Made by a program: the position numbers and the translations under genes. From NCBI GenBank assembly GCA_021813145.1, contig JAKALS010000002.1, positions 149,862 to 213,861 of the forward strand: a stretch of DNA of 64,000 nucleotides. Reading direction: 5' to 3'. The notes under the pieces were generated by a model. The model did no database searches. It was not told the origin of the DNA and worked only from the letters and a program-made list of their open reading frames with translations. Shown one piece after another: positions 8,787-38,863 of this stretch; within the stretch, counting starts at the first letter, position 1; every line of letters begins with the position of its first letter. Source of the DNA: a bacterium. Lineage in GTDB: Bacteria > Patescibacteriota > Microgenomatia > Levybacterales > UBA12049.

Positions 8787-11075
8787 TTAGAATTTACGCC
8801 TATTTACAAAAGAGTATAGCATGTAACTAATTATTGCCAATATCTCAAATGCAAAAATTATTATTCCAATATAAAAATATAATTGAGTTTTATAAAATAA
8901 AATTAAATATAAAGTGTAGGTTCCATCCGAATTCTTTTTTATTTCTCCAAGTTTTTTTAATTCATTTATATTTAAATTCCAACCATTAGCATATCCATTA
9001 ACCATCAAATGATAGTTATTATTGTAATTTTTATCCTTTAATAATTTTATCTCTTTAAAATTTTCAAGAAAACTACTAACAGTGTACTCATTTTTATTTT
9101 CATATTTTCCAGGAGGATTGCCATCTAAATAAAGGTTCCAATCATTGCTGAAATTATTTAAAAGAGCCAAAACTTCTCCGCCTTTAATGTTTGTAAGCTT
9201 TACCTTATATTCTACAGGGCTTACCATGCTGTATTCTACATTCTTTGATGAACTATTTAAGGTAATACTACTTGACTGTAGACATTTTTTATTTAAAGTG
9301 TAAATAGAAAAACCTAATTTACCTTTTTCGTAATAATCAATACGGGAAGATATATCTTTTGAATTATTAAGTAATGCAGTTATTTTATAAGGATTATCCT
9401 CGATCATAGAATTTAAAGCTATATCCTTCCTAACCATGATGTGAGTAATCCCTAAATTACTAGCTTCATTGCAAAAGCTTTTACCTTCTCGAATTAAGCT
9501 CATAACCTCATTCATTTTATTTTTATAAGGTAAATTTGGAGAATAAGCGGTACTATCAGGTACTAATTGTGAAAATTTCCAAATAAAATTAAGAAAATCA
9601 TATCCATAAAAATTATTAAAAATTGCATCATATGTCGGATATGTACCAAAAAAACCGGGTATTATTAAAATTTTGTTAACTTTCTTCTGTGTTAAATAAC
9701 CTTCTGCTTGATAGTACTGAACTGGAACATTAAATGGCGTTAATAGGGGAGTAAAGACAAAAATAGCCCAAAGATAAACTATGCTAACTGTTAATAAAAA
9801 ATATATAAGTATCTTACGCCATACTTTTCTACCTTTATCAACAAACAATTTTATGCCAATCATTCCAAGGGAAACCAAAGAAAATAAGTACACCCAGTAA
9901 AATTTACTCGCTGGACGGCGAAAAATCTGAAATCCAGGAAAATGATTATAGAGATATAAAAAAATACCTCCAAATGGCTCATTAGTTCCTTTAGAAATAA
10001 AAATTCCAGCGACAATAAACCCTAAAAGTGGAATTATAATTTTCTTATCTTTAATATTAAACAATCCATAAAACATAAATGCAATCAGTGAAATAGATAT
10101 TAGAAACATGAATGGAGAATCGTACAATGAATTTGGTAAATTGCTAAAAAGAAGACCTTCTCCTTTCCCAATAAACAGGTTCAAAACAGATGCTTTAGCA
10201 AGAGCTAGATCAAGAGTAAAAATTGTGGTACTTGATGATGCCTTATTTAACGCAATTGTGCTACTAAGATTGCTAAAAAACGGCAATAACCACCAAATAT
10301 TAGATAAAAACGGAAGTAAAATTATAATTATATATTTAGGAATATTCCTAAAAAATGATTTTGTAACAAATACAACTGCTAAATAATATATTGTAAGTAT
10401 TATTAAAGTCACATATATCATTCCAAAATTTGCAAATGAAGAAGCGTTAAGAAAAAATATTGCAAACAGATAAACAAAATTCTTAAGCTTATAATCAGTA
10501 TCCAATAAAATTTTTTTAATTATCAATAAGATTAAAGGCATGGTTGCGTAAGTTAAAAGCTCAAGAAAATGCCCGGGTTGAATCATTCCAATGACATACG
10601 AAGACAATGTATAGATTACGGCTCCGAACATGGACAGAGGGTACCTTGTATATCTATATTTAAACTGTTGGCTACCTAATAACTCTTTCAAATAAAGAAA
10701 CATCGAGATTTCTGAAAGTAAAAACAAAAAGAATAGAAATAACAAGGTTATCGCAGACGAAGATACACCTAAAAAATGAAGAACTACATAGTAAGCGTAA
10801 AACGGAAAAAGTTGTGCGATAAGAAATGATAAATCTATTCCTCCATAGATAAAAGGATTGTATGTAAACAACAAGCTGTATGTCTGTTGATGGAAGTTAA
10901 AGGGCGAAAGAAAATCTCCGGCACCTATGAAGTTATATCCAAAGACTCTAGTAAACCACATTAATGGAGCAGATGCAAAAAAGGAAATAATCAAAAGAAA
11001 AAATATAGCTTCGCGAAATTTATAATTACCAACATATTTCCTGTAACGGTTTCTAATAATAGAAAAATAACTCAT
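8787..11075 (-). CDS. large polytopic membrane protein, YfhO/AftD-like GT-C architecture (family unassigned)
   Basis: 762 aa; N-terminal multi-TM domain of about 430 aa, a soluble N/K/Y-rich domain and a C-terminal TM anchor. Confidence 0.5.
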   Translation of the reverse strand: MSYFSIIRNRYRKYVGNYKFREAIFFLLIISFFASAPLMWFTRVFGYNFIGAGDFLSPFNFHQQTYSLLFTYNPFIYGGIDLSFLIAQLFPFYAYYVVLHFLGVSSSAITLLFLFFLFLLSEISMFLYLKELLGSQQFKYRYTRYPLSMFGAVIYTLSSYVIGMIQPGHFLELLTYATMPLILLIIKKILLDTDYKLKNFVYLFAIFFLNASSFANFGMIYVTLIILTIYYLAVVFVTKSFFRNIPKYIIIILLPFLSNIWWLLPFFSNLSSTIALNKASSSTTIFTLDLALAKASVLNLFIGKGEGLLFSNLPNSLYDSPFMFLISISLIAFMFYGLFNIKDKKIIIPLLGFIVAGIFISKGTNEPFGGIFLYLYNHFPGFQIFRRPASKFYWVYLFSLVSLGMIGIKLFVDKGRKVWRKILIYFLLTVSIVYLWAIFVFTPLLTPFNVPVQYYQAEGYLTQKKVNKILIIPGFFGTYPTYDAIFNNFYGYDFLNFIWKFSQLVPDSTAYSPNLPYKNKMNEVMSLIREGKSFCNEASNLGITHIMVRKDIALNSMIEDNPYKITALLNNSKDISSRIDYYEKGKLGFSIYTLNKKCLQSSSITLNSSSKNVEYSMVSPVEYKVKLTNIKGGEVLALLNNFSNDWNLYLDGNPPGKYENKNEYTVSSFLENFKEIKLLKDKNYNNNYHLMVNGYANGWNLNINELKKLGEIKKNSDGTYTLYLILFYKTQLYFYIGIIIFAFEILAIISYMLYSFVNRRKF

Positions 11076-19726: not shown

Positions 19727-20926
19727 TTAAAACTTAAAATTTCCTAAAAACTTTTTTAAGAATTTAAAAGCCTCAATCAAACCGTATATCGATATTACGT
19801 ATAAAACTGGTATTAGAATTACAAAATACCTAGAGGTTATTTCCCCGACGCTAAAAAATAAGAGATAAAATATGGACCAGATCATTAAGACTTCTATGTT
19901 TTTATTATGGGGAATTTTCTTAAAAATATAAAAAATAATTACAATAAGAGAAATTGAGGTAATAAACGGCCAAGTAATAGACCATTGAGAATCAGAAATT
20001 ACAGGTTTATTGCCAAACCACACATGCCATTGATTAAATAACAGCAGAGGCCAAATGGAGAATGGAAGAATTAAGAAACTTTTATGATATAAGAAAACCC
20101 ATTTTTGTATTCCTAAAAAAGCGTGAATATTATAACCAAATGCAAAAACTCTGACATAACTAAAAAGCAAAATAAAAATAGCCACAGGTAAAGAAAGCGA
20201 ATATTGAATTATTCTCTTTTTTTCTTTACTCAAAAATAAAACTAAATAGTAAGCTGCTACTATAACTAATCCCGTAACAAAAAACTTAGTAGAAATAAAT
20301 AAACCCAAGAATATATTAGAAAGCAAGAAAAGAAATAGTGAATTTTTTGATCTTAAAGCCTTATTGAAAAACAAAAAACCGCAAAGAAGAAACAATAGCT
20401 GAAATAAATCCAGAAGGGGAGTGTAAATGAACTGGTTTTTAAATATCTGCTCAAAACTCACAAAAAGAGGAGGCAAAAGCGACAAAGTCCTTGAACCATA
20501 GATCTGTAGGCTTAAGAAATATAATAAAACTAAAGAAAGAATTCCGCTTAAGGCGACAAATACTCCGGCATTATTAAAAATAATCGTAGATAATCCAATT
20601 ATATATTTTCCAAGCGGGGGAGCGTCAGGAACCACTAATACAGGATTTGTTCCTTTAATCAACTTTCCCCCCGCATAAGAAAATGCAACTTCATCCCTGA
20701 TCCAAACCGGGTGTTTATTAACATATTGGGAATTTAGAAATATTTTTTCAAGTTTCGGAAAATTAGACCAATAATTATATGTATAGAGCTGCCTATTTTG
20801 CCACAATACGCTTCCTACATTAAAAACTATAATTAAAACTAACAAAATCTGAATAATGGGGATTATTCTTTTTGTTTTTAAAAAAGTTATAATTTTATCA
20901 ATTTTTATTTGCTGTGCCATTTCCAA
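19727..20926 (-). CDS. polytopic membrane protein, small ArnT/GT39-like GT-C candidate
   Basis: 399 aa; first extracytoplasmic loop 'IRDEVAFSYAGGKLIKGTNPVLVVPDAPPLGKYIIG' (D-E pair plus P-P-L-gK-Y), reminiscent of ArnT/PMT loop 1. Confidence 0.4.
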   Translation of the reverse strand: MEMAQQIKIDKIITFLKTKRIIPIIQILLVLIIVFNVGSVLWQNRQLYTYNYWSNFPKLEKIFLNSQYVNKHPVWIRDEVAFSYAGGKLIKGTNPVLVVPDAPPLGKYIIGLSTIIFNNAGVFVALSGILSLVLLYFLSLQIYGSRTLSLLPPLFVSFEQIFKNQFIYTPLLDLFQLLFLLCGFLFFNKALRSKNSLFLFLLSNIFLGLFISTKFFVTGLVIVAAYYLVLFLSKEKKRIIQYSLSLPVAIFILLFSYVRVFAFGYNIHAFLGIQKWVFLYHKSFLILPFSIWPLLLFNQWHVWFGNKPVISDSQWSITWPFITSISLIVIIFYIFKKIPHNKNIEVLMIWSIFYLLFFSVGEITSRYFVILIPVLYVISIYGLIEAFKFLKKFLGNFKF

Positions 20927-21867
20927 GCAGTAGAAACTATTGTCTCTAAATCCGAGTATTTTGGAGAAAAATCCAATTCAGACTTAATTTTTGAAGGATC
21001 GGCAATTAATTCGTCTGCATCTCCCGGACGGCGTTGTGCAAATTTAATATTTACCTTCTCGCCCGAAACTTTTTCCACCATTTCCACCACTTCTTTATTC
21101 GAATATCCGTTTCCTGTTCCGACGTTATAAATATAATTTCCGGGTTTTTCATTAAGCCTTTTTATTGCCAAAAGATGTGCCTTGGCAAGGTCCAATACAT
21201 GGATATAATCCCGAACGCACGTCCCGTCCTTTGTTTTGTAATCATTCCCAAAAAGATTGAATTCCCGCTTTTCTAAAAGCGCTTTAATAATATTTGGAAT
21301 TATATGGCTTTCCGGTTTATGTTCTTCTCCCCTTTTTCCGTCCAAAGAAGCTCCAGCCGCATTAAAATAGCGAAGGGCTACAGTATGAAGGTTTTTTGTA
21401 ATTCCGTACCATTTCATTATTTTTTCTACCATTAGTTTACTCTCTCCGTACGGATTTTCAGGATTTGTTGGGTGATCTTCGGGAATCGGCAGCTTTACGG
21501 GGTTTCCGTAGACTCCCGCCGAGGAAGAAAATATAAAATTATCGTTTCCTGTTTTTGACATTTCTTCAAGAATTTTAAGGGAAGCAAAAACATTATTGTT
21601 AAAATAAAGCACGGGGTTTTCCATGGATTCGCCCATGGATATAAAACCGGCAAAGTGGATTACGGCATCAAATTTGTCTTTAAAAATCGATTGGACAAAT
21701 GAATCCTCCAAAAGGTTTCCCTGTAAAAACTTCGCCCTCGGGTCTACGGTTTCACGGTGGCCTCTTTCCAGACTGTCGGCAATAATAACCTCATTCCCTT
21801 CATCAAGAAGGGTTTGGGCCATAAATCCACCTATGTATCCTGCACCCCCTGTTACCAAAATTTTCAT
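20905..21867 (-). CDS. galE: UDP-glucose 4-epimerase
   Basis: 320 aa; 'MKILVTGGAGYIGGF...', 'SSSAGVYG', 'YGESK', 'RYFNAAGA' Rossmann/SDR-extended motifs of GalE. Confidence 0.85.
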   Translation of the reverse strand: MKILVTGGAGYIGGFMAQTLLDEGNEVIIADSLERGHRETVDPRAKFLQGNLLEDSFVQSIFKDKFDAVIHFAGFISMGESMENPVLYFNNNVFASLKILEEMSKTGNDNFIFSSSAGVYGNPVKLPIPEDHPTNPENPYGESKLMVEKIMKWYGITKNLHTVALRYFNAAGASLDGKRGEEHKPESHIIPNIIKALLEKREFNLFGNDYKTKDGTCVRDYIHVLDLAKAHLLAIKRLNEKPGNYIYNVGTGNGYSNKEVVEMVEKVSGEKVNIKFAQRRPGDADELIADPSKIKSELDFSPKYSDLETIVSTAWKWHSK

Positions 21868-21885: not shown

Positions 21886-22662
21886 TTAAAGTCCGAAGGA
21901 CTTAACGTACGATACCGGAAATCTTAATGCCGAAAAGAATGAAAATACAAATCCTTGCCATCCGTCTACAAAACCCTTATGTCTTAAAAATGTCGTAAAA
22001 AGCCAATGCGTGGGTTTAATAAATAGATATCCTACCGCATAAAATAATTTTTGAAAAATATTTTTACCTTTTTGCTCTTCTTTGATCTGCCCTGCAAAAA
22101 GAATGTTGTATCTATTCCATTTATTAAGATAATGGGAAAAATTTTTGTAGGGATAATGTAAAAGTGCTGACTTTAAATAGCCTACCTTTCCATCGACCTG
22201 TGCCTGCTCGTGAACATCTTTTTGGGGAAGACGCCCTTTTCCGTTTTTATAAAGCCTTAAAGTGTAATCTGGGTATTGTCCGCCCTTCATTAAAAATCTT
22301 CCCAAAAACCAGTTTTTTCTTGGCATCCAATATCCATTGTACTGACCAGAGCCGTCTTCGAGGATCTTAAGGATTTCCTCCTTCATCTCAGGGCTAACCT
22401 GCTCGTCTCCGTCTAATTGAAGTATCCAATCTTTTGTTGCCATATCTATTGCCATTTGCTTGTTTATGTGGAAGTTGGGTTTATTCGTGGTAATTTTTAT
22501 TTTTGCCCCGTATTTTTTTGCTATTTCTACGGTTTTGTCCGTCGATGTTCCATCTACTATTACTATTTCGTCTGCAAGTCCCCTTACGCTGTCAAGACAG
22601 GCGGAAAGATTAGCCTCTTCGTTATATGTTGCAAGAACCACCGAAAGGGTTTTACGAGCCAT
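21886..22662 (-). CDS. GT2 glycosyltransferase, WaaE/KdtX-like
   Basis: 258 aa; 'LSVVLATYNEEANLSACLDSVRGLADEIVIVDGTSTDKTVEIAKKYGAKI...QLDGDE'; paralog of 42551..43306 and 45479..46390. Confidence 0.75.
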   Translation of the reverse strand: MARKTLSVVLATYNEEANLSACLDSVRGLADEIVIVDGTSTDKTVEIAKKYGAKIKITTNKPNFHINKQMAIDMATKDWILQLDGDEQVSPEMKEEILKILEDGSGQYNGYWMPRKNWFLGRFLMKGGQYPDYTLRLYKNGKGRLPQKDVHEQAQVDGKVGYLKSALLHYPYKNFSHYLNKWNRYNILFAGQIKEEQKGKNIFQKLFYAVGYLFIKPTHWLFTTFLRHKGFVDGWQGFVFSFFSALRFPVSYVKSFGL

Positions 22663-22686: not shown

Positions 22687-24336
22687 TCACCTTTTTACAA
22701 ACCTGAAAGCGGCAAATCCCAAGAGAAAAATAAGGCTTACCGCGGAAATAATATCGGATATAAATCTTAACCTTGTTTCCCCATACTTTGCTTGGACTAT
22801 ATAGTTTCCGGGGGAAAGGTGAAAAGTCATTATTCCCCTGTATTGCATATTCTGAAATTGGATGTTAACAGGTACCCCGTTTGCTGTTATTGTCCAGCCG
22901 GGAAAGTATAAAGTGTTCTCGGCAAAATACGTATTTTTGGTAACCGTTACTTCGTAAACGTGTTCAACGGCAAGTCTTTTTACTTCTTTTACCGTTGCCT
23001 TACCGTCCAATACCTGCAAATGGTTTTTGGGTCTATGCTCCATAAATCTTACCGACCAGACAGGAGAACTTTCTCCTGTATCGGTAGTGCCGTTATATAT
23101 CCCGGTATAAAAACTCTCGGGCTTGATAAGATAACCTTTTGGCGCAAAATAATCCCTGCTTACAAAAACGACGATTAAAATAAAAATTAATGAAAGATAA
23201 AATATATATTTTTTGGGAAACTCGTCCATCAGGAATGCACCCAAAACGGCTGTTGAAAATACCGTAATAGCCAAAAATCTCCATGGGAATTGGAAATTCT
23301 GTAAAATCATCATCTTTGCCCACAAAAAATTTGAGACTTGAAGCATTATAAAAATTGCACCCAACGTATAGATAATCAATGACAAAACAAGAAGCCAGTT
23401 TTTATTTTTTAGCTTAATGGATTTCCAGATAAGATAAGGTGAAAAAATCAGCGCAAGCCACTGGAAAATTCCAAGCTGGAGAGTAAACTGATCATAATCC
23501 CAGGGACCGTAAATAAGTCCAGATAAAGTTGCGAATCTTCCAATATATATGTTTTTTGTAACGATATTTCGCAAAGTATATTTTCCTTCCAAAAGGCCGG
23601 GAACCCAGAAGAATGCCGAAACAGTAAAGCCTCCAATGATTAATAATAAAAGATTAATGATTAATTGCTTACGTTCTTTGGAAAGATATACCATATATAT
23701 CGAGTAGAAGAGTATAAAAGGAACGTAAATTAAAGCAATTGCATTATGTGCAAGAATTAAAAAAGCCAAAGACAAAGAGCCCCCTGCCAAATATTTATAA
23801 TCCGCCTTTTTATACAATTTATAAATGAAGAAAAGGGCAAGAGGCATAAATGCAAAAGCAAGGTTTTCCCCTATATCTCCCCTTACATATAAATCTATAA
23901 ATCTGTAAGGGGCGTATGTATATAAAAATGCCCCGAATAACGAAGCATATTTTGAAGAAAACTGCGAAAGCCATAAATACATCAAAATAAAAGAAAAAAC
24001 CATTCCTAAGCCGAATACTATTTTTGTACTATCTACGAAAGAAAAACCTACAAAATGGAAAAAAGAAGCTATATATGAAGGCAACGGATAAAGAAACTCA
24101 AGTACAGGATGTCCGTATCCCCAATTAAGGTTTGGCCCCCACCGTGGAATTATATTTCCCTGCGTAAGATTGATATAAAAATTTGCGATTCTTACAACAT
24201 GGTCCTGACCGTCATCCGTCCAGGGAAGCCCCGGATGCAACAACGAAATAACCGGCAGAATTAATAAAACGATAAATACTGCCCAAAATAAATACTTCAT
24301 TTTCATTTTATTTAGCCCCTGGAGCATAAACATCAA
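22687..24336 (-). CDS. polytopic membrane protein, GT-C-like paralog family B ('hDD..H' loop family)
   Basis: 549 aa; N-terminal loop 'LLHPGLPWTDDGQDHVVRIANFYINLTQGNIIPRWGPNLNWGYGHPVLEFLYPLPSY' is shared with the 48537..50279 and 50276..51799 products. Confidence 0.5.
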   Translation of the reverse strand: MMFMLQGLNKMKMKYLFWAVFIVLLILPVISLLHPGLPWTDDGQDHVVRIANFYINLTQGNIIPRWGPNLNWGYGHPVLEFLYPLPSYIASFFHFVGFSFVDSTKIVFGLGMVFSFILMYLWLSQFSSKYASLFGAFLYTYAPYRFIDLYVRGDIGENLAFAFMPLALFFIYKLYKKADYKYLAGGSLSLAFLILAHNAIALIYVPFILFYSIYMVYLSKERKQLIINLLLLIIGGFTVSAFFWVPGLLEGKYTLRNIVTKNIYIGRFATLSGLIYGPWDYDQFTLQLGIFQWLALIFSPYLIWKSIKLKNKNWLLVLSLIIYTLGAIFIMLQVSNFLWAKMMILQNFQFPWRFLAITVFSTAVLGAFLMDEFPKKYIFYLSLIFILIVVFVSRDYFAPKGYLIKPESFYTGIYNGTTDTGESSPVWSVRFMEHRPKNHLQVLDGKATVKEVKRLAVEHVYEVTVTKNTYFAENTLYFPGWTITANGVPVNIQFQNMQYRGIMTFHLSPGNYIVQAKYGETRLRFISDIISAVSLIFLLGFAAFRFVKR

Positions 24337-27247: not shown

Positions 27248-28987
27248 TCAAGTTCCTGCTATTCTTATTGCTGGTGTTCCGTTTAGGTTATAAATTGTTT
27301 TAGAAGCCGCGCTTTGGGGAATCTCCTGCGGAGTACCGATAAAGAGTATTCCTTTTTGTTTAGACTCTTGCGCCCAATTTATGGGTTTAAATACGTATTT
27401 ACCGAAACTGTGATGGGATGCAAAACCTCCCGAGCTTGTCTCTCCCACCTTTTGATAAAGGGCGGGCGGATATTTTAGATAGAACAGGAAGAACATATAG
27501 GATTTATCCATGGGCTGGTTGTCTGATACTCTTATTTCCTTATAATTGTTGCCTACAAGTTTTGCCTCTTCAACAGCCTGCTGGTAACCGTACTGCCAAT
27601 CCTGAGAAGTATAGTAATTAAGCTGAACAAAATACTGGTCAAGATAATAAATAAAATTAAGAGTGGCAAGTAGTATGAATAAAGTATAAAGCACCGGCTT
27701 AAAGTAAGCTAAATATTTAATACCTGATACTTTATACTGTTTAATCAGCAGGTACCCGCTGATTAAACCCAGGGCCGAAAGGATTTGCCAGGTGGGAAGA
27801 AAATTAAGGGTTCTTACCGCGTGAGGAACTCCGCTTGTAATAGAAGCCGGGACAGGCGCTAATAACATCCAGCCAAAAACCGTAAGCTTCGTCTTTCTGT
27901 CAAAAGGTCCGAATAGAAGCATGTAAATACCAAGAAGTATTAAAGGAAGCTCAAACAGATATATTAATCCCATATTTGGGGCATGGTGCCTTGATATATC
28001 GCCCGTAACAAAAAGCCAGTTGGGGTCAAAATGGACAATGTACCCCGAAATAATAGCTTTTGCGTACGTGATCCTTCTGTTATCTACTATTAATCCCAAG
28101 ATGTCGTGATTTGCTATGTCCCTTTGCAGTTTAGGTATGTCGTTGGAAAGAAGAACCGTCTGATGGGAAAATACGCTTGTCCCCGTAACCCTTAAAAGGG
28201 CCGCTCTATTTGTTAATATGAATACCACCATGGGAGTTACAACAATAAGCCCGAATATTACAACCGAAACTATATATTTTTTAGGAATCGAAAATAGTTG
28301 TTTACGGTATATAAGAGCAAGCGCCAAAACAAGAAGAGGTGTAAAAACTTTTTCGCTCTGGTAAACATAAATATCAAGGCCCGCAAAGAAAGCCGAAAGG
28401 AATAACATCCAACGGTTTTTTAAGCCCTTGATAAAAAACAAAGCCGTAAAAATATTAAAGGCATCCCCCGTATTTGCCTCAAATCCTACTCTTGAAAATT
28501 GTATAGACCAGGGAGAAATCGCCATGAACCCTGCCGAAAGCAAAGCTAATAGGTCGATATTTAGGACTTTGTATTTGGTGAATAGGGTTCCTTTTTCCTC
28601 TTCCTCTCCGGCTTTAAGTCCTACTTTTTCAGTCTTGCTTACCGAAAAGAGTTCTTTAACCAGGAAATACGTGGCTAAAACCGCAAGTGTTCCGAATATT
28701 GCAGACGGAAGACGGACGGCAAAAACATTAAGACCGAATATAAAAACCGTAGGTATTGCAAGATAAGCATAGAGGGCAGGTTTATAATCGTCAAAAGACC
28801 TAAGAACTACAGGCAAGAATTTCCCGAATTCGTCTCTTCCGGTGTGGATTATGGAATAGGCATCATACCCCAAGGCAACTTCATCCCAATCGGGAGAGGG
28901 AGGAACGTGTCCCAGCATCCAAAGCCTAAGGACTGCAGCCAAAATGACAATTCCCGCTAATATTAACCAAACAAGTTTCCTATTCAT
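27248..28987 (-). CDS. PMT_2/GT39-like phospholipid-carrier-dependent glycosyltransferase (tandem paralog 1 of 3)
   Basis: 579 aa; 'PSPDWDEVALGYDAYSIIHTGRDEFGKFLPV' loop-1 with the D-E motif; multi-TM. Confidence 0.6.
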   Translation of the reverse strand: MNRKLVWLILAGIVILAAVLRLWMLGHVPPSPDWDEVALGYDAYSIIHTGRDEFGKFLPVVLRSFDDYKPALYAYLAIPTVFIFGLNVFAVRLPSAIFGTLAVLATYFLVKELFSVSKTEKVGLKAGEEEEKGTLFTKYKVLNIDLLALLSAGFMAISPWSIQFSRVGFEANTGDAFNIFTALFFIKGLKNRWMLFLSAFFAGLDIYVYQSEKVFTPLLVLALALIYRKQLFSIPKKYIVSVVIFGLIVVTPMVVFILTNRAALLRVTGTSVFSHQTVLLSNDIPKLQRDIANHDILGLIVDNRRITYAKAIISGYIVHFDPNWLFVTGDISRHHAPNMGLIYLFELPLILLGIYMLLFGPFDRKTKLTVFGWMLLAPVPASITSGVPHAVRTLNFLPTWQILSALGLISGYLLIKQYKVSGIKYLAYFKPVLYTLFILLATLNFIYYLDQYFVQLNYYTSQDWQYGYQQAVEEAKLVGNNYKEIRVSDNQPMDKSYMFFLFYLKYPPALYQKVGETSSGGFASHHSFGKYVFKPINWAQESKQKGILFIGTPQEIPQSAASKTIYNLNGTPAIRIAGT

Positions 28988-28992
28988 AACCT

Positions 28993-30690
28993 CTATATGG
29001 TATACGCTACCAGCGCCGGCTGGCCGTCAAGCAAATAAAATGTTTTTTGAATTTTGATATTTTTCGGCAAATTATAAGGCGTATTTATATATAAGACTTT
29101 CTTTGTTTTGCTTAAATTATAGTTATAATTCTCCGGAAAAAGGTATTTGCCAAAACCCAGGATTGTTACAAATCCGAATGCATCTCTATGGATTATTGCG
29201 GTTTTTCTATAAACCTCGGGATTTGTTTTTGTATAAAAAAGATAATATATATAAGGTCTTCCCAAAGCATGCGTCATCTGTATGTAATCGTATTTGTTTT
29301 GCACCGACATTACATAATCTATAGATTGCTTATAGCCGTACTGCCATTCTCCGGAATATTCATAAGGATATTGATAAAAATATTCATGATAAAAGTAAAC
29401 AAAGTTCATAAAAAGTAAAACAAATAATACAACCGGTAAAAGAATTCCCATATTAAAGCTATATATTTTAAGTTTTAGGTCTTGCCTTTTTGTCCAGTCC
29501 AAAAAGGCAGCAAACCCGTAAGCCGTAAAAATCTGGAATGTTGGAAGAGTTGCCTCTATTCTTAGCGCATGAGGTGTCTGCTGTGCTGTTGCAGCGGGAA
29601 TTATTCCTACTAAAAGCCACAAGGGAACAAGCCACCAATTTCCCTCTTTTTTCCTTAACAAAAGAAGAATTCCCCCCACAAAAAATACGATATCCCAGAT
29701 ATACATCTGTCCGGTACTTTGAGTGGAAAACTTAGGATTACCGTCGCCTTTTATAAACAAGAACGAAGGGCTCAGGTTATCGAAATAATGCTGGGCAAAA
29801 TCCACAGAATATAAAAGCCTTCTGTTATGGATTATCTTTGACCAAAAAGCATTATTATCGTTAGCGATTTCCTGATTTGCAGTTTTGACTACATTTATGT
29901 CGCTGAATATATTTACTTCTTGAAACCTTAGTCCCGCTTGCGGAGTTAGCAAAAATCTGAATGTCGGAAGAAAGATAATAATTCCAACAACGGCCGATAT
30001 TATAGCCACTTTTTTCATCTTCCATAGTTTTTTCCAAAATGCCAGAGCCAGCAAAATTACCAAAAGCGGGGATACTATCCTTTCGGTATTAAAGGTATAC
30101 ATGGTAAGGGTAAAAGAAATAGCGGAAACAACAAGAAGCCACCTCTCGTAGCTTCTACGTCCGCTCAACTCTGCAGCTTGAACGGACGCAAGAAATGCCC
30201 ACACTCCCAATACAACAAAAAATGAAGCGACATTTGCTTCAAAAGCCGCACGCGAAAGCATAATGTGCCAGGGGGAAATAGCTAAAAATAAAGCAGCCAA
30301 AATACCTATAACATTTCTATTTTTTGAGGTATTAAATATTCTTCGGACAAGAAAGAAGGTAAGAAGGACCGTAAGGGTTCCGAAGAATGCCGAAGGGAAT
30401 CTTGTCGCGGTTTCGTTTAAACCTAAAATCTTAACGGGCAAAACATCAAGATATGCATACAAAGGAGGTTTAAAATCCCCGAAAGACTCCAGATAATCGT
30501 GAGGTAAAAATCTTCCGAATTCGTCTTTGCCGTTTACTCCCAAAGAATATGCATTATATCCCCAGGCTGCTTCGTCCCATGTCAAAGAAGGAGGATTACT
30601 CCCCAATTGATAAAATCTTAAAAATGCTGCGAGTAAAACTATCAGGAGCAATAATAGTTTCCAGTTAAATAATTTACGTACTACTAACAT
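28993..30690 (-). CDS. PMT_2/GT39-like glycosyltransferase (tandem paralog 2 of 3)
   Basis: 565 aa; 'PPSLTWDEAAWGYNAYSLGVNGKDEFGRFLPH'. Confidence 0.6.
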   Translation of the reverse strand: MLVVRKLFNWKLLLLLIVLLAAFLRFYQLGSNPPSLTWDEAAWGYNAYSLGVNGKDEFGRFLPHDYLESFGDFKPPLYAYLDVLPVKILGLNETATRFPSAFFGTLTVLLTFFLVRRIFNTSKNRNVIGILAALFLAISPWHIMLSRAAFEANVASFFVVLGVWAFLASVQAAELSGRRSYERWLLVVSAISFTLTMYTFNTERIVSPLLVILLALAFWKKLWKMKKVAIISAVVGIIIFLPTFRFLLTPQAGLRFQEVNIFSDINVVKTANQEIANDNNAFWSKIIHNRRLLYSVDFAQHYFDNLSPSFLFIKGDGNPKFSTQSTGQMYIWDIVFFVGGILLLLRKKEGNWWLVPLWLLVGIIPAATAQQTPHALRIEATLPTFQIFTAYGFAAFLDWTKRQDLKLKIYSFNMGILLPVVLFVLLFMNFVYFYHEYFYQYPYEYSGEWQYGYKQSIDYVMSVQNKYDYIQMTHALGRPYIYYLFYTKTNPEVYRKTAIIHRDAFGFVTILGFGKYLFPENYNYNLSKTKKVLYINTPYNLPKNIKIQKTFYLLDGQPALVAYTI

Positions 30691-32383
30691 TTATTCTTTG
30701 CTCCTTATAATATTTTAACAAATCCGAAGCATTAATTCCTTCAAACAAAATGTTTCCTAATTTATCTTTAATTGTAAATAGAGGCTTAAGAGTTTTTGGA
30801 AAATCAACAGGATTGGAAATAAAAAGAGCCGTATAATTCATTTGAGCAGAAAAAGTTGAAATTGTAGGTAAGTTTTGCACAAAGTATATATTATCAATCT
30901 TATCTACCGAAATCCAGCCGTCAGAGGCCTCATGAAATGACACATTCACTTTTTTTTGGAAATTACTAGGAGAATACTTATTGTAGAATAAATAATAAAC
31001 ATATTGTTTTGTATCATTAAGGTGGCGGGAAATATAGATTCTATCGTATTTATTTCTTTGACTAAAAACTGTTTTCATCAAATCTTCATATCCGTATTGC
31101 GAATAAAGAGAGTAATAATTTTTAAAATAGGTTGTATAATTTATCCAAAAAATAAACACAGAGAAAAAAACTATAAAAGAAATAAAAATATAGGAAAGTT
31201 TTTTGAGATATTTATAATCAGGCCTGGAGATAAGTTCAATGAGATAAAATAGGCCTATTCCCTCAATAATCAGGAGGAAGGGAATCATTATTGAAGCTCT
31301 TCCATAATGCCCTGCCCCTGTCAAAGAATCGGGTATAGGAGCTATCAAAAGTAACAAAATAATCAAAAATCCGTTTTTATCCCTATATTTAAGGATTCTA
31401 AATAGACCTAAAATCAATAATAAAACACCAAAAACGTAATCAAGTCCCCTCTGTGGAAGTATTGAATACTGTGTTTCGGTACCATTGTTATAAAGAAAAT
31501 TTATATTAAAGTGTGCAGTATAATTCTTTGCGAAAGTAGAAGTAAAAAGGAAAACCTTATTATCGGCTATTTTACAAATAAGTGAAATATAAGTCTTTTG
31601 ACACGCTCCTCTTTCATCATTAAGGGTATTTATTAAACCTATACTGTTAACATTGTTTATGATTCCCACCTGTGTGAAACGGACACCGGCAGTAGTATCT
31701 TTCGTAAGAAAATTTGGTATTAAAACTATTACAAACAAAATGAATGCTATTAGATATTGTTTATAATTTTTAAAAACTATTTTCTTGTTCCAGAACAGCA
31801 ACAAAACGGCAACCAAAGGAAGAAAAAGGACATAAGCGGAATAGGTATATAAAACCAGGGCAAACAGTAACACTGAAATATATAAATAGTTTATTTTTTT
31901 AAGGGAATGCAAATAAATAAAAAAAGAAAAAAGAAAAATGGTTATGGCAATATTTGGCTCTATTGTCACTCTACTCAAGCCAATAGCCCAAGGAGAAATC
32001 GCAAGCAAAAATGATGCAAATAAACCTATTTTTTCATTAAATAATTTTTTTCCCAAAAAAAATAGCAACAGTACGGAAATAACCCCGAAAAGGGCAGAAG
32101 GAAATCTCACCGAAAAACTGTTCAATCCAAAAAACAAAATAGACGGAACTGTTAGATATCTTAGTAAGGGGGCAGGATAATCTCCAAAAGCGATAAAATG
32201 TAGCGGTAGAAATTGATTCCATTGGTCTCTTCCGGTTAAAAGTATTGAATATGCATCCCAACCGACTCCTGCTTCGTCATTTGTTAATCCTGACGGAATG
32301 CTTCCAAGCATATAAAACCTTAAAAATGCTGCAAGTAAGATTATAAAGATTAATGAAAGTCTCCAATTAAATATTTTTTTCAT
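30674..32383 (-). CDS. PMT_2/GT39-like glycosyltransferase (tandem paralog 3 of 3)
   Basis: 569 aa; 'PSGLTNDEAGVGWDAYSILLTGRDQWNQFLPL'. Confidence 0.6.
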   Translation of the reverse strand: MKKIFNWRLSLIFIILLAAFLRFYMLGSIPSGLTNDEAGVGWDAYSILLTGRDQWNQFLPLHFIAFGDYPAPLLRYLTVPSILFFGLNSFSVRFPSALFGVISVLLLFFLGKKLFNEKIGLFASFLLAISPWAIGLSRVTIEPNIAITIFLFSFFIYLHSLKKINYLYISVLLFALVLYTYSAYVLFLPLVAVLLLFWNKKIVFKNYKQYLIAFILFVIVLIPNFLTKDTTAGVRFTQVGIINNVNSIGLINTLNDERGACQKTYISLICKIADNKVFLFTSTFAKNYTAHFNINFLYNNGTETQYSILPQRGLDYVFGVLLLILGLFRILKYRDKNGFLIILLLLIAPIPDSLTGAGHYGRASIMIPFLLIIEGIGLFYLIELISRPDYKYLKKLSYIFISFIVFFSVFIFWINYTTYFKNYYSLYSQYGYEDLMKTVFSQRNKYDRIYISRHLNDTKQYVYYLFYNKYSPSNFQKKVNVSFHEASDGWISVDKIDNIYFVQNLPTISTFSAQMNYTALFISNPVDFPKTLKPLFTIKDKLGNILFEGINASDLLKYYKEQRINVSST

Positions 32384-33664: not shown

Positions 33665-35605
33665 TTATATTTTATAAAGAGCGGATTCTCCTTTACCATT
33701 AATTAACTTCAGTTTTATAAACTTATCGGCGCAAGTATTCTTTTTTAAAAGTAAAAGGTATTGATTATTACTTTCTTCCATCAAATTTATTATGTTATGT
33801 TCAGCAGTTTTTGGATTACTACAATTTACCATATTTTCAGCTATTTTATCTATAATCATTTTTCTTTTATCTACAACATTATTTAAACCTTGAAATTGCG
33901 CTATTTCTTCTTCGTAATAAACGGGGTGTCCGCTTATACCAGCAATTAACGGGCTGCTGTATAAAGTTTCATACGTTCCTTTTATTATTGGCCTATTTAT
34001 TACTATAATTCCCGTTCTTGAAGGCAAATTTCTTATTATTTTTGTTTTTTCTACTAGCCCGGAATCTATAAATGTAGGGTCTATGGAATAAGTCATAAAA
34101 GTTTTAAAAAAATCTGGAAAGAATAAAACAAAAAATATTACTAGGCTAATGATAAAAAGTTTTCTGTTTTTGTCTATTACGTTCCCTATGACATAAGCGG
34201 TAGGAACCAAAAGTATTATATAACCGGCCCAAAAAAACTGGATGTTTTGAAATGTTGAACTGCTCTGTACAAAAAGGCTTGGAATAATGAATGAAATTAA
34301 TATAGTAGTTAGCCAAAATATATTATTTAGGCTATAAAACTTTTTACTAAACAATTTTTTAAACTTTAAAAAAACTACCACTCTTATTCCTAAGCTTGTA
34401 AACAAAAATATAAATATTGCTACTGCATAAAAAAAGGCAATATGAATGTAATTATGCGACTGAACATAAATAGGGAAATTAACATTCCAATGCCAGTTAT
34501 TAAAAATCCAAGCGCTATCGATAAAGTTTTTATAAATAAGAAAGGGGGCAAAAACAAGACTTCCTGCACCAAAATTAATCGGTAAAAAAACAATTGAGGA
34601 AATAATTCCTGATAAGATAAAGGTTTTTAATAATTGGAAATTTCTTTTTTTATATAAGTCCCATAATGCAATAATTCCAAAACCAGTATAAAAAATAATT
34701 GATGGATAAATTTTTACTTCGGGAAGAATGCCTATTATAAGGGCTGGTAAAAAGAAAGCCCACTTTTTTCCTTTTGAAAACAGCAATATAAAGCCTATAA
34801 AAAAGAATCCTACGGAAATAATTACCGTAGGATCAAGCATATTTGCTATAGACTGCATGATTCCTGCCGAGTTGTAATAATAATTAAATAACCTGTAAAT
34901 ATAATAAGCGTAAAAATCAAAACTCTGTGCAAAATACATTAGGATAATAAAAATTATAAGTGTAAAATTTTTCCATTTTAAAAATCTTCCGAGTGAGAGA
35001 GATGAAATTCCATAAAGAACAGATATAAATAAAGCAAAATCCCTAAAGAATAAATCAAAAACATTCAAATGATAAAATTTAGAGAATTCTGCAATGAGAA
35101 AATCATAAAAAATATGATAGCCTCTTAAGGGAACACCCGCCAAACCTGGATGAACAGGAGGAAAGCCGGAAATAAGGCTGTAAATTAATGACGTATTAAA
35201 CAGCGAGTCTGCCGAATTAATTCCATAAAAGACCAATTTACCGTTATCGTATAATCCCGAACGCAAAGTCAAATATGACATGGAAAGAGAACCAATAATA
35301 ATAAGAAGATACTCGGGAGAAACTATTTTTCTTATCTCAACCTTTTCTTTTAACTCAAGGTAAGACTTCTTTCCCTCAAAAAGTAACGCAAAAGGAATAA
35401 CAAGATTGAATAGATAATCAAGCTTTATAAAAGACAAAATAAATGTCAAAAATAAGAATAGGGAAATACCGATAATCAAAGAGGAGGTAAATGTAATTAT
35501 AAAATCTCCAAATTTATAACCGGAAATCCTTAAGGTAAATCTTCCGGGAAGATAAAAAACAATAAATGCAAGGAAAAAGAATAAAAGCAAATTTAATAAC
35601 TGCAT
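33665..35605 (-). CDS. large polytopic membrane protein, unknown (GT-C/polymerase-like architecture)
   Basis: 646 aa; about 14 predicted TM segments followed by a C-terminal soluble domain of about 150 aa; no motif I can name. Confidence 0.45.
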   Translation of the reverse strand: MQLLNLLLFFFLAFIVFYLPGRFTLRISGYKFGDFIITFTSSLIIGISLFLFLTFILSFIKLDYLFNLVIPFALLFEGKKSYLELKEKVEIRKIVSPEYLLIIIGSLSMSYLTLRSGLYDNGKLVFYGINSADSLFNTSLIYSLISGFPPVHPGLAGVPLRGYHIFYDFLIAEFSKFYHLNVFDLFFRDFALFISVLYGISSLSLGRFLKWKNFTLIIFIILMYFAQSFDFYAYYIYRLFNYYYNSAGIMQSIANMLDPTVIISVGFFFIGFILLFSKGKKWAFFLPALIIGILPEVKIYPSIIFYTGFGIIALWDLYKKRNFQLLKTFILSGIISSIVFLPINFGAGSLVFAPFLIYKNFIDSAWIFNNWHWNVNFPIYVQSHNYIHIAFFYAVAIFIFLFTSLGIRVVVFLKFKKLFSKKFYSLNNIFWLTTILISFIIPSLFVQSSSTFQNIQFFWAGYIILLVPTAYVIGNVIDKNRKLFIISLVIFFVLFFPDFFKTFMTYSIDPTFIDSGLVEKTKIIRNLPSRTGIIVINRPIIKGTYETLYSSPLIAGISGHPVYYEEEIAQFQGLNNVVDKRKMIIDKIAENMVNCSNPKTAEHNIINLMEESNNQYLLLLKKNTCADKFIKLKLINGKGESALYKI

Positions 35606-36571: not shown

Positions 36572-36595
36572 TTCTAATGATTAGAATCATTAGAA
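36572..36595. promoter_or_regulatory. perfect 11-bp inverted repeat with 2-nt spacer (ttctaatgatt-ag-aatcattagaa) between the YfhO-like gene and the downstream GT2 gene
   Basis: Read directly from sequence at 36572..36595; overlaps the stop codon of 36590..38863; no adjacent U-run on the transcribed strand. Confidence 0.4.
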
Positions 36596-38863
36596 CAGTG
36601 TGTCGTAAAATTCTATCGTGTGTTCCCCCTTGGGAACTATTACTCCCCTAAAATTATAATCCGTTCTGAATATCTTTGTTTGCTTTCCGTCTATTTTTGC
36701 GTGCCAGGTGGGATAATAGCTGTCCGTTAAAACCATAAAAGCTTTTCCCGCCGTTAATGTTTTAATGACCACTTTATTTTCCCCGTAATAACTTATTTGC
36801 GCCTGTCCTCCGCTCCAATTTGTCGTAAATTTATTTACTCCTTCGACAACTGCCCTGTTATTAAGAAGAAAATTGGGGTCGAACATCTTATTTATTGCAT
36901 CCTGCTTTGAGGTTGCAACAACCGTAGTAGGTACAAAAAATGCTCTGGGCAAAGCGTTTTTGTTTGCGTAAACATTTACGGTCCCGTCGGAGAATACGGG
37001 AGTAAGATTGGGATCTTTTATGTTCTCGAGGCTTAATACATAAACAACATTCATAAAAGAAATAAGACGCGAAGAATAATTTTGGGGTGTAATTATCCTG
37101 TTAAAACCAAACGGAGTAGAGATATCGGGTTTATTCCTTCCAACGGCTGCCATTAACTCTCCGTAGCGCTGAAGATACAAGGGATCGTATCCGTCCAATG
37201 TCTGGATTTTATACATATCCGAAAAGTTAGGAGGCAGAATTTTGGAATCCAGGGACATCACCCTAAAAGGTCCGCCCGAGTTTTGCTGCTCTAAAAAAGT
37301 CATTACCGCCTGGGAAGGAAAAAGATAAGCTTTGTTTGTAAAAGGCTCAAATTTCCACCCGAATCGGAAAAGGTCAAATAAAGATACAAGAATTAAAAGA
37401 TAAGAAATAATAAGTATGTAAGGAAATTTGCCAAGCTTCCCTTTTAAAAATACGGAAACAACAAGAATTAAAGTAACAACTGCAAATATGACAGAAGGCA
37501 AAATAAGATTTTGTTTTGCAACGCTTAAATCTGCAGGAGCAAGAATATGCCCGTGAAGGAATAGGACAAAAGTCCAAAGACCCGCAAAAGCCAGAGCAAA
37601 GATTCCAAGAATATATAGAATTGGTTTTTTGTTTTTTAAAGAAACGTAATAGTCCATTCCAAGGGCCGCCAAAACACTCAGGGAAAAATCAATTAAAAAC
37701 AACAGTCTTGTCGGCTGTGCCGTAGAAATAAACGGAATGTTCAGTTTAAAAGGAATTTTTGCAAAAATAGTCGGGAGGGCAAAAAATAAAGAAACGAAAA
37801 ATACCGTACCGAAAAATAAAGTCTTTTTGTCGCGCCTGAAAAATAGAGCAAAAAAAGCGGTTATAAGAGGAAAAATTCCGATGTATCCGATAAACTCCGC
37901 ATAGTTCCACACCCCGAAATAATTAAGGGTGGCGGGGTTCCCGAAAAAGTCCGGGGCCAAAAACTGCACCAGATTTTGCCATGGAATAAACCAGCCTGCC
38001 TGGGTATATCCGGGAAGGTCAACGTTTCTTGCCGAAAGGAGAATAAATCGTAGAGTAGGCAGCCACTGGACCAACGTCAGAATTAAGAATAAAAAAGTAA
38101 GAATTAAGAATAATAACAAAGATTTTAATTTTTTTCCCTGTTGGAAGAGCCTTGCGAGAAAATACGCAAGAGATATAAGTGAAAGGTAGAAAAAAGTTTG
38201 AAGGTGTCCCGCAAAAAAGGAAAAAACCAATGATAAAACGAATATGCTTCCCCAGATAATTATTGATTTTTGATTGCCGATTTTTCTTTTTTCAAATATT
38301 TTGTCTATGGATAACAAAACCAGCGGTAGCCACAAAGCGGTATTTCCAATTGTTCCCCATTCAAGCCATGCAATTGAAAAACCGCAAAAAGCAAACGCCG
38401 AAGCACCCAAAAAAGAAGCCTCTTTTCTAATCTTTAAATTTGTTAGATACAAATAAAGGAACAGTCCGGCTAAAATTGGCTGGATAATAATTAGAAGGCT
38501 CCAGGAAAAAGAAAAAGGCAAGACAAAAAACAGTAAGTTAAAGGGATAAAAAACAGCCGACTGGAAATTAGCCAGTAAGGGATAACCCGCAAAGTTATAC
38601 GGATTCCACAAAGGCAAACTCAAATTCTTTTCCGCCTGAATTACAAGATTTCTCCAGGGATATTGCTGTCTAACCGGATCCGTTACGAGAAAATTTTTAT
38701 ATGGTACTCCGTTTGGGTTTGTCTTTTGGTAAATTTCCCTGAAAGGATAATAAAGGCCGACTATTGTATCGGAAGGAATTGGCAAAAGCCCTTTTAGCAA
38801 AAACTGCCAGAAAAATACCAAAACAGCAAGAACTATTATTAATAAATAAAAATATCTTTTCAT
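36590..38863 (-). CDS. YfhO-family membrane glycosyltransferase-like protein (paralog 1 of 3)
   Basis: 757 aa; N-terminal 'DPVRQQYPWRN...LPLWNPYNFAGYPLLANFQSAVFYPFNLLFF', then about 13 TM helices, a soluble C-terminal domain and a terminal TM. Confidence 0.55.
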   Translation of the reverse strand: MKRYFYLLIIVLAVLVFFWQFLLKGLLPIPSDTIVGLYYPFREIYQKTNPNGVPYKNFLVTDPVRQQYPWRNLVIQAEKNLSLPLWNPYNFAGYPLLANFQSAVFYPFNLLFFVLPFSFSWSLLIIIQPILAGLFLYLYLTNLKIRKEASFLGASAFAFCGFSIAWLEWGTIGNTALWLPLVLLSIDKIFEKRKIGNQKSIIIWGSIFVLSLVFSFFAGHLQTFFYLSLISLAYFLARLFQQGKKLKSLLLFLILTFLFLILTLVQWLPTLRFILLSARNVDLPGYTQAGWFIPWQNLVQFLAPDFFGNPATLNYFGVWNYAEFIGYIGIFPLITAFFALFFRRDKKTLFFGTVFFVSLFFALPTIFAKIPFKLNIPFISTAQPTRLLFLIDFSLSVLAALGMDYYVSLKNKKPILYILGIFALAFAGLWTFVLFLHGHILAPADLSVAKQNLILPSVIFAVVTLILVVSVFLKGKLGKFPYILIISYLLILVSLFDLFRFGWKFEPFTNKAYLFPSQAVMTFLEQQNSGGPFRVMSLDSKILPPNFSDMYKIQTLDGYDPLYLQRYGELMAAVGRNKPDISTPFGFNRIITPQNYSSRLISFMNVVYVLSLENIKDPNLTPVFSDGTVNVYANKNALPRAFFVPTTVVATSKQDAINKMFDPNFLLNNRAVVEGVNKFTTNWSGGQAQISYYGENKVVIKTLTAGKAFMVLTDSYYPTWHAKIDGKQTKIFRTDYNFRGVIVPKGEHTIEFYDTLF

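Follow-up and report, generated by a model that had tools for sequence, protein, structure and literature searches.

The closest described systems to the genes considered here are those built around the YfhO family, whose characterised members come from Firmicutes (YfhO of Bacillus subtilis, Staphylococcus aureus and Listeria, and the streptococcal proteins PgtC2, PgfM1 and PgfM2). CsbB/GtcA/YfhO acts on lipoteichoic acid and GacI/GacK/GacL, in which GacK is a Wzx protein, on rhamnose polysaccharide (PMC8035078), while GtrB/PgtC2 and PgfS/PgfE/PgfM1, the latter including the epimerase PgfE, act on Ser/Thr-rich protein regions (PMC12041528). B. subtilis YfhO has 13 helices and an outer loop of 389 amino acids between the last two (PMC5836110). 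Here we describe three related open reading frames (ORF1, ORF2 and ORF3) in a 64,000-nucleotide stretch of DNA (the window; positions 149,862 to 213,861 of contig JAKALS010000002.1, assembly GCA_021813145.1) from a bacterium of the Levybacterales, within the candidate phyla radiation (CPR). The three products are polytopic membrane proteins of the Pfam family PF10131 (PTPS_related), and we consider it probable (about 70%) that they are GT-C transferases moving sugar from a polyprenyl-phosphate-sugar to an extracytoplasmic surface polymer or protein.

All three ORFs lie on the minus strand. ORF3 (50276..51799, 507 aa) and ORF2 (48537..50279, 580 aa) form a tandem in which ORF3 is the upstream member and the two genes overlap by 4 nt, and ORF1 (22687..24306, 539 aa) is a solitary paralogue about 25 kb away. 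When all ORFs of the window were compared by blastp, E-values were 4e-70 for ORF1 and ORF3, 2e-64 for ORF1 and ORF2 and 6e-47 for ORF2 and ORF3, with pairwise identities of 28-31% over nearly the full length; the three are clearly paralogues. Their relatedness and their layout had both been proposed in an initial annotation made from the letters of the window, and both were confirmed. That annotation gave ORF1 the span 22687..24336, of which the frame is right but the start probably is not. The open frame does extend to a TTG at 24336 (549 aa), with in-frame ATGs at 24327 and 24306. The ATG at 24306 lies one base past the stop codon of the upstream gene, and the 539-aa product that it opens is 100% identical to a database protein (P0001); in another public gene call the frame opens at ATG 24327 (546 aa). 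ATG 24306 is the likely start and TTG 24336 probably is not, and residues of ORF1 are numbered on the 539-aa form.

A Pfam scan assigned PF10131 scores of 41.9 bits to ORF2, 30.8 bits to ORF3 and 22.7 bits to ORF1, the first two above the gathering score of 26.4 bits and the last slightly below it. On these scores ORF2 and ORF3 belong to PF10131, and ORF1 joins them by paralogy and through its identical twin P0001, which has a precomputed PF10131.16 match; precomputed PF10131 matches are present in almost every one of the 240 homologues listed. The aligned positions of the 621-position profile (1-171 in ORF2, 5-309 in ORF1 and 6-384 in ORF3) represent the transmembrane core. PF10131 belongs to the GT-C clan of Pfam (CL0111) and is listed as 'function unknown' in the sole paper found that names it (PMC7801869); searches of the literature on CPR and GT-C, on Patescibacteria and YfhO and on surveys of new GT-C families returned nothing that characterises it. 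The suggestion of the initial annotation that the family was possibly uncharacterised therefore stands for the function, none being assigned in the literature, but not for the family itself, which is already catalogued, very large and very common in CPR metagenomes. Searches for homologues of ORF1 and of ORF2 gave, in each case, over 1,500 relatives out of the candidates that were scored. When 1.84 billion representatives were searched with a profile of the three proteins, 19,850 clusters (50% identity) matched at E ≤ 1e-3 and 6,112 at E ≤ 1e-30. Named organisms among the homologues were almost always Levybacteria/Levyibacteriota or 'Patescibacteria group', and public labels were inconsistent, ranging over 'PTPS-related', 'YfhO family', 'GT39', 'uncharacterized membrane protein' and 'hypothetical'.

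Several other assignments were considered and rejected. Of the candidates named at the outset, PTPS-related was upheld by the PF10131 scores and DUF2142 (PF09913) was not, as neither it nor DUF2079 (PF09852) gave a match at E ≤ 1 in the Pfam scan. The PTPS enzyme family itself is not represented, since no PTPS domain was matched at E ≤ 1 and the three proteins are polytopic membrane proteins; the family name PTPS_related is thus a misnomer. Membership of PMT/GT39 was rejected on PMT_2 (PF13231) scores of 16.1 bits for ORF1 and 22.9 bits for ORF2 against a threshold of 26.1 bits, and neither PF02366 nor MIR domains were matched in any of the three by the Pfam scan; the 'glycosyltransferase family 39' label on some homologues is an over-annotation. 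An AftD-type GT-C domain scored below threshold in Pfam, and no NCBIfam model was found for ORF1, ORF2 or ORF3. The YfhO model (PF09586; gathering score 28.5 bits) gave no match at E ≤ 1 in ORF1 or ORF2, and in ORF3 reached 25.7 bits over the C-terminal 75 residues only. Because this model is not matched above threshold, PF10131 stands outside PF09586 and the NCBI label 'YfhO family protein' on some homologues is loose.

The three proteins share a long conserved block in the first loop, spanning residues 24-78 of ORF1 (HPGLPWTDDGQDHVVRIANFYINLTQGNIIPRWGPNLNWGYGHPVLEFLYPLPSY; 24073..24237), 25-80 of ORF2 (LSPGLFPVHDDTQVQRVFEMTKSLNAGMFPVRWSMDLGFGFGYPIFNFYAPLAYYS; 50040..50207) and 26-80 of ORF3 (51560..51724), all on the minus strand. 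The block had been noticed in the initial annotation; it is present in the three-way alignment and persists in 142 single-domain representatives of 50%-identity clusters that are 23-49% identical to ORF1 (145 sequences aligned). Among these sequences conservation was 91% for G26, 99% for D32, 98% for R39, 99% for R55, 95% for L60, 98% for G65, 99% for P67, 97% for F71, 99% for P74 and 94% for Y78, and fell slightly below 90% for G50 (129/145) and G63 (113/145); position 56 is mostly Trp or Phe. Judged by this alignment, the block is a family signature and not a product of chance.

The same alignment revises the 'DD' pair first described in this loop. Its second Asp (Asp32 of ORF1, codon 24211..24213; Asp34 of ORF2, codon 50178..50180; Asp34 of ORF3, codon 51698..51700; all minus strand) is kept in 144/145 sequences and was also invariant in two further family alignments, whereas position 31 before it is His in 99/145 sequences (about 68%), Asp in 36/145 (about 25%) and Gln in 5/145. 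Position 34 is D, E or N across PF10131. In the sequences sampled the family motif is therefore [H/D]-D, with the second Asp alone invariant, within the revised signature G-[FL]-x-x-x-[HD]-D-x(5,6)-R-x(10)-G-x-x-x-x-R-[WF]-x(3)-L-x-x-G-[YF]-G-[YH]-P-x(3)-F-x-x-P-x(3)-Y. Since position 31 is almost always His in sampled ORF1-type orthologues (T-H-D-G-Q-D-H, with one Gln), the T-D-D-G-Q-D-H of the ORF1 in the window is a local His to Asp substitution. The PF10131 match opens at residue 70 of ORF2 and residue 83 of ORF1 (profile positions 1-6), and of the whole block the final F-x-F-Y-x-P-L alone lies inside the model, the part with the invariant Asp lying outside. That the model begins after most of the block explains why the initial annotation did not place it among known families.

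The first-loop block is one among several conserved extracytoplasmic motifs. Near-invariant residues further downstream were Y129..P133-Y134..Y140-V-R142-G143..G146-E147, H187-N188, P236..E240..T244, S325..W329..Q339-F-P341-W-R343, E412-Y-x-P415 and Y467-F-P469-G-W471. The near-invariant residues of the family are all retained in ORF1, ORF2 and ORF3 in the three-way alignment.

AlphaFold2 models built on family alignments were confident for both ORF1 (predicted local distance difference test, pLDDT, 88.5; predicted template modelling score, pTM, 0.90) and ORF2 (pLDDT 90.2; pTM 0.92) and had a common layout. After an N-terminal helix comes a loop of about 50 residues that contains one helix (35-48 in ORF1). 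A bundle of helices then extends to about residue 382, and a stretch predicted in part with low confidence leads on to a beta-sandwich (430-508) and a long final helix (512-538). In the ORF1 model the first-loop signature lies between helix 3-23 and helix 74-85, with Asp32 placed 9 residues after helix 1. The beta-sandwich of ORF1, delimited by DSSP strands of the model, carries the Y-F-P-G-W motif (22783..23019, minus strand) and is anchored by the last transmembrane helix (22693..22773, minus strand; model and hydropathy). The beta-sandwich of ORF2 resembled accessory beta-sandwiches of glycoside hydrolases in Foldseek.

At E ≤ 1e-3, Foldseek searches of the PDB returned GT-C enzymes only (14 matches for ORF1 and 17 for ORF2), among them yeast and human STT3, AglB, ArnT, PglB and EmbC with a probability of 1.00; AftD, Pmt4 and AftA fell just below the threshold. 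The models therefore show a GT-C fold for the family, and the description of the products as GT-C-like in the initial annotation agrees both with these matches and with the Pfam clan. Sequence and profile searches of PDB chains with the family alignments gave nothing meaningful, so no close relative has been solved. The top-ranked matches of both models were STT3, AglB and PglB, a ranking that speaks for a different function, in which the proteins would be en-bloc transferases or polymerases using polyprenyl-diphosphate oligosaccharides in protein glycosylation or surface polysaccharide assembly. However, the Foldseek E-values and TM-scores of ArnT, AftD and Pmt4 were near those of STT3, and the STT3 models did not score: there was no PF02516 match at E ≤ 1, and TIGR04154 reached 10.2 bits against a cut-off of 450 bits, on which membership of STT3/PglB/AglB was rejected. 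A WWDxG-type motif (W[WY][DN][YWF]G) was not present in ORF1, ORF2 or ORF3, nor was an STT3-like C-terminal domain.

Like the solved GT-C enzymes (STT3/AglB/PglB, ArnT, AftD, EmbA/B/C, Pmt4 and AftA), the three proteins have an N-terminal helix and a long first external loop. They differ from them in having no WWDxG motif, MIR domains or carbohydrate-binding modules, and an additional helix at the C-terminus tethers the small beta-sandwich that makes up their soluble part. The solved GT-C families have an essential acidic residue in the first loop and use lipid-phosphate-linked donors at the outer face; in PglB, ArnT and PMT the site faces outward and the essential acidic residue comes early in the first external loop. 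From the model helices and hydropathy, ORF1-3 are predicted to have 12 membrane helices with the N-terminus and the C-terminus both cytoplasmic, eleven helices being followed by an extracytoplasmic segment of about 130 residues that ends in the beta-sandwich and then by the twelfth helix. Loops placed on the inner side are short and rich in Lys/Arg (..YKLYKKADYKY.., SKERKQ, KSIKLKNKN, PKK and the C-terminal VKR), a positive-inside pattern that points to an outward orientation of the first loop. The invariant polar residues all map to loops placed on the outer side.

In this topology the conserved acidic residue that GT-C enzymes have in the first extracytoplasmic loop would be Asp32, and a catalytic role for it is likely by GT-C precedent. 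The putative outward-facing active site would be formed by [H/D]-D32, R39, R55-W and G-Y-G-Y/H-P of the first loop, probably together with Y-V-R142-G..G-E147, H187-N188, P236..E240 and Q-F-P-W-R343. As a separate observation, E412-Y-x-P415-x-W (Glu in 137/145 sequences; ORF1 residues 408-420, approximately 23047..23085) falls in the one long stretch where the pLDDT of the ORF1 model drops below 50, recalling the mobile catalytic external loop of PglB. The equivalent H-E-Y-M-P of ORF2 lies downstream of the low-confidence segment of that model (417-428) and is apparently better predicted.

General hydrophobicity and a low G+C content (about 36%) are the only grounds on which the likeness of the three ORFs might be put down to chance or composition among hydrophobic ORFs of an AT-rich genome. 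This reading is refuted, and we give it a negligible probability, because the pairwise E-values run from 1e-47 to 1e-70, the profile search reached thousands of clusters, the motif holds at 23-49% identity and the models are of high confidence.

The initial annotation could not place the block among known families, YfhO included. Placement outside PF09586 is correct, but a relation to YfhO was found: an alignment of 78 PF10131-type sequences compared by hhalign with the three YfhO paralogues of the window gave a probability of 99.2% and an E-value of 2.3e-19 over 351 columns. PF10131-type and window YfhO proteins were also linked by blastp in their N- and C-terminal regions, and the C-terminal match of ORF3, in the part that corresponds to the beta-sandwich of ORF1, falls on the end of the YfhO model (profile positions 755-829 of 835; 25.7 bits). 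Judged by these comparisons, PF10131 is a compact sister of YfhO, related at the superfamily level and not a member of PF09586. The two have in common the second half of the first loop (G-x-I-P-x-W-x-P...G-x-P...F-Y-P) and a Y-[FY]-P-x-W...D-G beta-sandwich followed by the last membrane helix. The large outer loop between the last two helices also follows the YfhO plan on a smaller scale, with an outer segment of about 130 aa in ORF1-3 compared to the 389 aa of B. subtilis YfhO. ORF1-3 are shorter overall (507-580 aa compared to 757-791 aa for the YfhO paralogues of the window), their first loop is shorter with [H/D]-D directly past helix 1, and they are of Levybacteria-type CPR origin whereas the characterised YfhO members are from Firmicutes.

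A second comparison, by description, is with Listeria GtlB, which has a D-x-x-D in its first external loop with both Asp residues required (PMC5836110) and has 8 predicted helices and a PMT_2 annotation (PMC8035078). Both are small GT-C proteins with an acidic motif a few residues past helix 1, and the H-D-G-Q-D of ORF1-type proteins conforms to D-x-x-D. GtlB transfers galactose, and ORF1 has a conserved UDP-glucose 4-epimerase neighbour. In contrast, the second Asp of D-x-x-D is not conserved across PF10131, where position 34 varies, and GtlB is not a PF10131 protein.

The immediate neighbours of the tandem are glycosylation genes on the minus strand. A glycosyltransferase family 2 (GT2) gene with an ArnC/GtrB/DPM1/PpgS-type catalytic domain (47834..48544; Pfam GT2, 100 bits) overlaps the 3' end of ORF2 by 8 nt. 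The NCBIfam models ArnC, AglJ, PgfS and PpgS span most or all of its catalytic domain below cut-off, and its best solved relatives are ArnC (E = 3e-16, residues 4-217), GtrB and DPMS. Five mutually paralogous GT2 genes of the ArnC/GtrB/DPM1 type are present in the window, beginning at 2649, 16399, 32957, 47834 and 56897. Beyond the GT2 lies a flippase of the MOP/Wzx family (46393..47847; Polysacc_synt_3, 167 bits; NCBIfam MOP flippase, 129.6 bits against a cut-off of 273 bits), and immediately upstream of ORF3 lies a YfhO-family GT-C gene (51783..54158; PF09586, 93.6 bits) with two paralogues at 40205..42547 and 36590..38863, identified by blastp and PF09586 (75-98 bits over the three).

ORF1 has its own module on the minus strand. 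The gene immediately downstream is a GT2 (21886..22662; Pfam) whose nearest counterparts among solved structures, GmaR (E = 1.2e-19) and SunS, are GT2s that modify proteins and peptides. This is followed by GalE, a UDP-glucose 4-epimerase (20905..21867; TIGR01179, 396.5 bits against 262.3 bits). With GmaR and SunS, and not ArnC/DPM1, as its best relatives, the adjacent GT2 is probably not a CsbB-like donor synthase for ORF1, and that role was rejected. Two paralogues of this GT2 lie at 45479..46390 and 42551..43306. GmaR is the flagellin O-GlcNAc transferase of Listeria and SunS a peptide S-glycosyltransferase, and the subfamily hints that the locus also encodes a cytoplasmic glycosylation of proteins or peptides.

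The arrangement of both modules is conserved. We examined about 80 related loci from GTDB genomes, mostly of Levybacteria and other Microgenomates, with neighbours identified by blastp against the ORFs of the window. There were 22 loci with an ORF3-type gene ahead of an ORF2-type gene. Of 20 loci, 16 had a GT2 of the 47834 or 56897 paralogue type directly after the ORF2-type gene, and all 20 had a MOP flippase within two genes of it. A GT2 of the 21886 type followed ORF1-type genes in 41 of 47 loci, and in 35 of those 41 GalE came within two genes after it. This genomic pairing with GT-A/GT2 enzymes, flippases and a 4-epimerase resembles that of CsbB/YfhO and PgfS/PgfE/PgfM1.

Some features of the survey stand apart from these counts. 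PF10131-type and YfhO-type genes are recurrent neighbours. In the window, the slot at 43303..44565 holds a phosphodiesterase of the alkaline phosphatase superfamily (PF01663). In loci L026, L033, L037, L041, L043 and L048 no phosphodiesterase-type ORF was detected in that slot; a fourth PF10131-type gene, 41-50% identical to ORF1, lies there, flanked by the GT2 of the 44562 type and the YfhO of the 40205 type, and the order of this YfhO and the 42551-type GT2 is reversed. GTDB records with Levybacteria-type loci (L005, L008, L009 and others) are often titled 'uncultured Gammaproteobacteria bacterium', and single loci are titled Eisenbacteria, Saccharimonadales and Pacearchaeota; all such titles are probably placeholders or mis-binned records and not a true spread.

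By analogy with CsbB/GtcA/YfhO, GacI/GacK/GacL and PgfS/PgfE/PgfM1, we propose that a cytoplasmic ArnC/DPM1-like GT2 (47834..48544 or one of its four paralogues) would load sugar onto polyprenyl phosphate and that the MOP-family flippase at 46393..47847 would carry the polyprenyl-phosphate sugar across the membrane. ORF2 and ORF3 would then pass the sugar to an extracytoplasmic acceptor, either a surface glycopolymer or Ser/Thr-rich surface proteins, with Asp34 of each as the likely catalytic or metal-binding residue. ORF1 may do likewise in its own module, possibly with galactose or N-acetylgalactosamine, a hint that we take from GalE because this neighbour is conserved. The conserved adjacency of the ArnC/DPM1-like GT2 and the MOP flippase is indirect support for a polyprenyl-phosphate-linked donor, and the acceptor classes known for YfhO-type enzymes, anionic wall polymers and Ser/Thr-rich proteins, are the candidates here.

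Several findings weigh against this proposal. ORF1 falls short of the PF10131 gathering score, and the literature that could be searched yielded neither biochemical nor genetic evidence on any PF10131 protein. The resemblance to solved GT-C enzymes is moderate (TM-score 0.38-0.49, identity 12-16%), and the structural matches do not separate monosaccharide transferases (ArnT, Pmt, AftD) from the oligosaccharyltransferases that rank at the top. ORF1 is without an adjacent dedicated donor synthase because its GT2 neighbour is GmaR/SunS-like. No GtrA-type flippase was seen in the window, where ORFs shorter than 120 aa were not searched apart from one intergenic gap. Finally, MOP flippases classically move diphosphate-linked oligosaccharides.

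The last point returns to transfer en bloc from polyprenyl-diphosphate oligosaccharides. The locus has two MOP/Wzx flippases, of the kind that classically flips diphosphate-linked repeat units, and many soluble enzymes of glycosyltransferase family 4 (GT4) and of GT2 that might assemble them. However, none of the genes in the window was recognised as an initiating phosphoglycosyltransferase, the immediate neighbour that is conserved is a GT2 of the ArnC/DPM1 type, and the characterised members of the closest family, YfhO, transfer single sugars from undecaprenyl-phosphate-sugar (PMC8035078, PMC5836110, PMC12041528). Taken with the structural and motif comparisons above, we consider en-bloc transfer unlikely.

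The genomic context also bears on a third possibility, that the proteins are non-catalytic or differently acting GT-C-like scaffolds, serving as a flippase for polyprenyl-phosphate-sugar or as acceptor-binding partners of a neighbouring YfhO or PMT_2 protein. Rismondo et al. raised the possibility that YfhO itself flips the lipid intermediate (PMC5836110). PF10131-type genes do recur beside YfhO-type genes, the window search for a GtrA-type flippase, within the limit given above, was negative, and some GT-C enzymes partner with catalytically reduced paralogues. Nevertheless, two MOP flippases are already present in the window, and in some loci a PF10131-type protein is the sole GT-C beside the GT2. 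Moreover, an Asp, several Arg, a Glu and a His-Asn are kept in outward-facing loops in the three paralogues and in about 98-99% of the 142 representatives; this conserved polar set is the pattern expected of an active site. A non-catalytic role is accordingly very improbable in our estimate, and single-sugar transfer from a polyprenyl-phosphate donor remains the preferred reading.

A bolder extension of it, which we regard as doubtful, would set PF10131 apart as a 'mini-YfhO' class of the GT-C enzymes, marked by a His-Asp dyad in the first loop, and would make ORF3-ORF2 an obligate heterodimer, perhaps akin to Pmt1-Pmt2 or EmbA-EmbB; this pair and the other GT-C genes of the locus, a dozen or more, might serve an extensive extracytoplasmic O-glycosylation of CPR surface proteins. 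Outside the window, long polypeptides with two or more PF10131-type units were found (P0241, P0242, P0243, P0251 and P0303). P0241 has an ORF3-type half and then an ORF2-type half, the same order as the tandem in the window and a hint of a heterodimer, and P0303 has an ORF3-type unit and then a 19727-type unit. Long polypeptides of the P0241 type may be true fusions or frameshift artefacts of metagenome assembly.

The window lies on a 219-kb metagenomic contig (ENA ERZ27237538), and the wider surroundings of the three ORFs are of one kind. From 353 to 57673 nearly all genes are glycosylation genes; all but one are on the minus strand, and overlaps of a few bases are frequent. For a CPR genome this is a striking investment. 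About 17 encode polytopic GT-C-like proteins: three PF10131, three YfhO, six of PMT_2 type, one MptA-like, one with a faint PMT match and three without a Pfam match. Also present are 11 GT2s, several GT4s, a GT11, two MOP flippases, GalE, a GDP-fucose-synthase-like protein, methyltransferases and acetyltransferases. Three of the PMT_2-type genes (27248..28987, 28993..30690 and 30674..32383) are tandem paralogues with E-values of 1e-56 to 1e-94, a second three-member GT-C family that is also found upstream of ORF1-type genes in other Levybacteria. The proteins without a Pfam match (33665..35605, 5983..8244 and 8787..11075; 646, 753 and 762 aa) have 11-14 hydrophobic segments and are candidate divergent GT-C or polymerase-like proteins; the first has no NCBIfam match either.

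Between 4000 and 16000 the G+C content drops to 26-30% compared to about 36%, and the sole plus-strand gene of the locus (4019..4876) encodes a Replic_Relax (replication-relaxation) protein. Together, the low G+C and this gene suggest that the segment was horizontally acquired, or is a mobile-element insertion, with extra glycosylation genes. At one end of the locus, 2059..2631 encodes a 190-aa protein with a GT4 N-terminal domain only and overlaps by 4 nt with 923..2062, which encodes a 379-aa protein with both GT4 domains; the pair (923..2631) may be a split or remnant GT4 gene.

Taken as additions to a known and functionally uncharacterised family, the three ORFs are a correct but fairly ordinary finding. 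What the analysis adds is the corrected [H/D]-D motif, its location outside the Pfam model, the sisterhood with YfhO, two confident models and the conserved gene modules. For a family that is very large, has no function assigned in the literature and is inconsistently labelled, the signature with its invariant Asp, the relation to YfhO and the GT2 and flippase partners supply concrete residues and genes for a first biochemical test, and the results suggest improving the boundaries and the name of the PF10131 model. The wider question, which this finding alone does not answer, is what role some 17 GT-C-like genes in a 57-kb locus play for CPR bacteria with genomes below about 1 Mb. If true, surface-protein O-glycosylation would be a process not yet described in the CPR.

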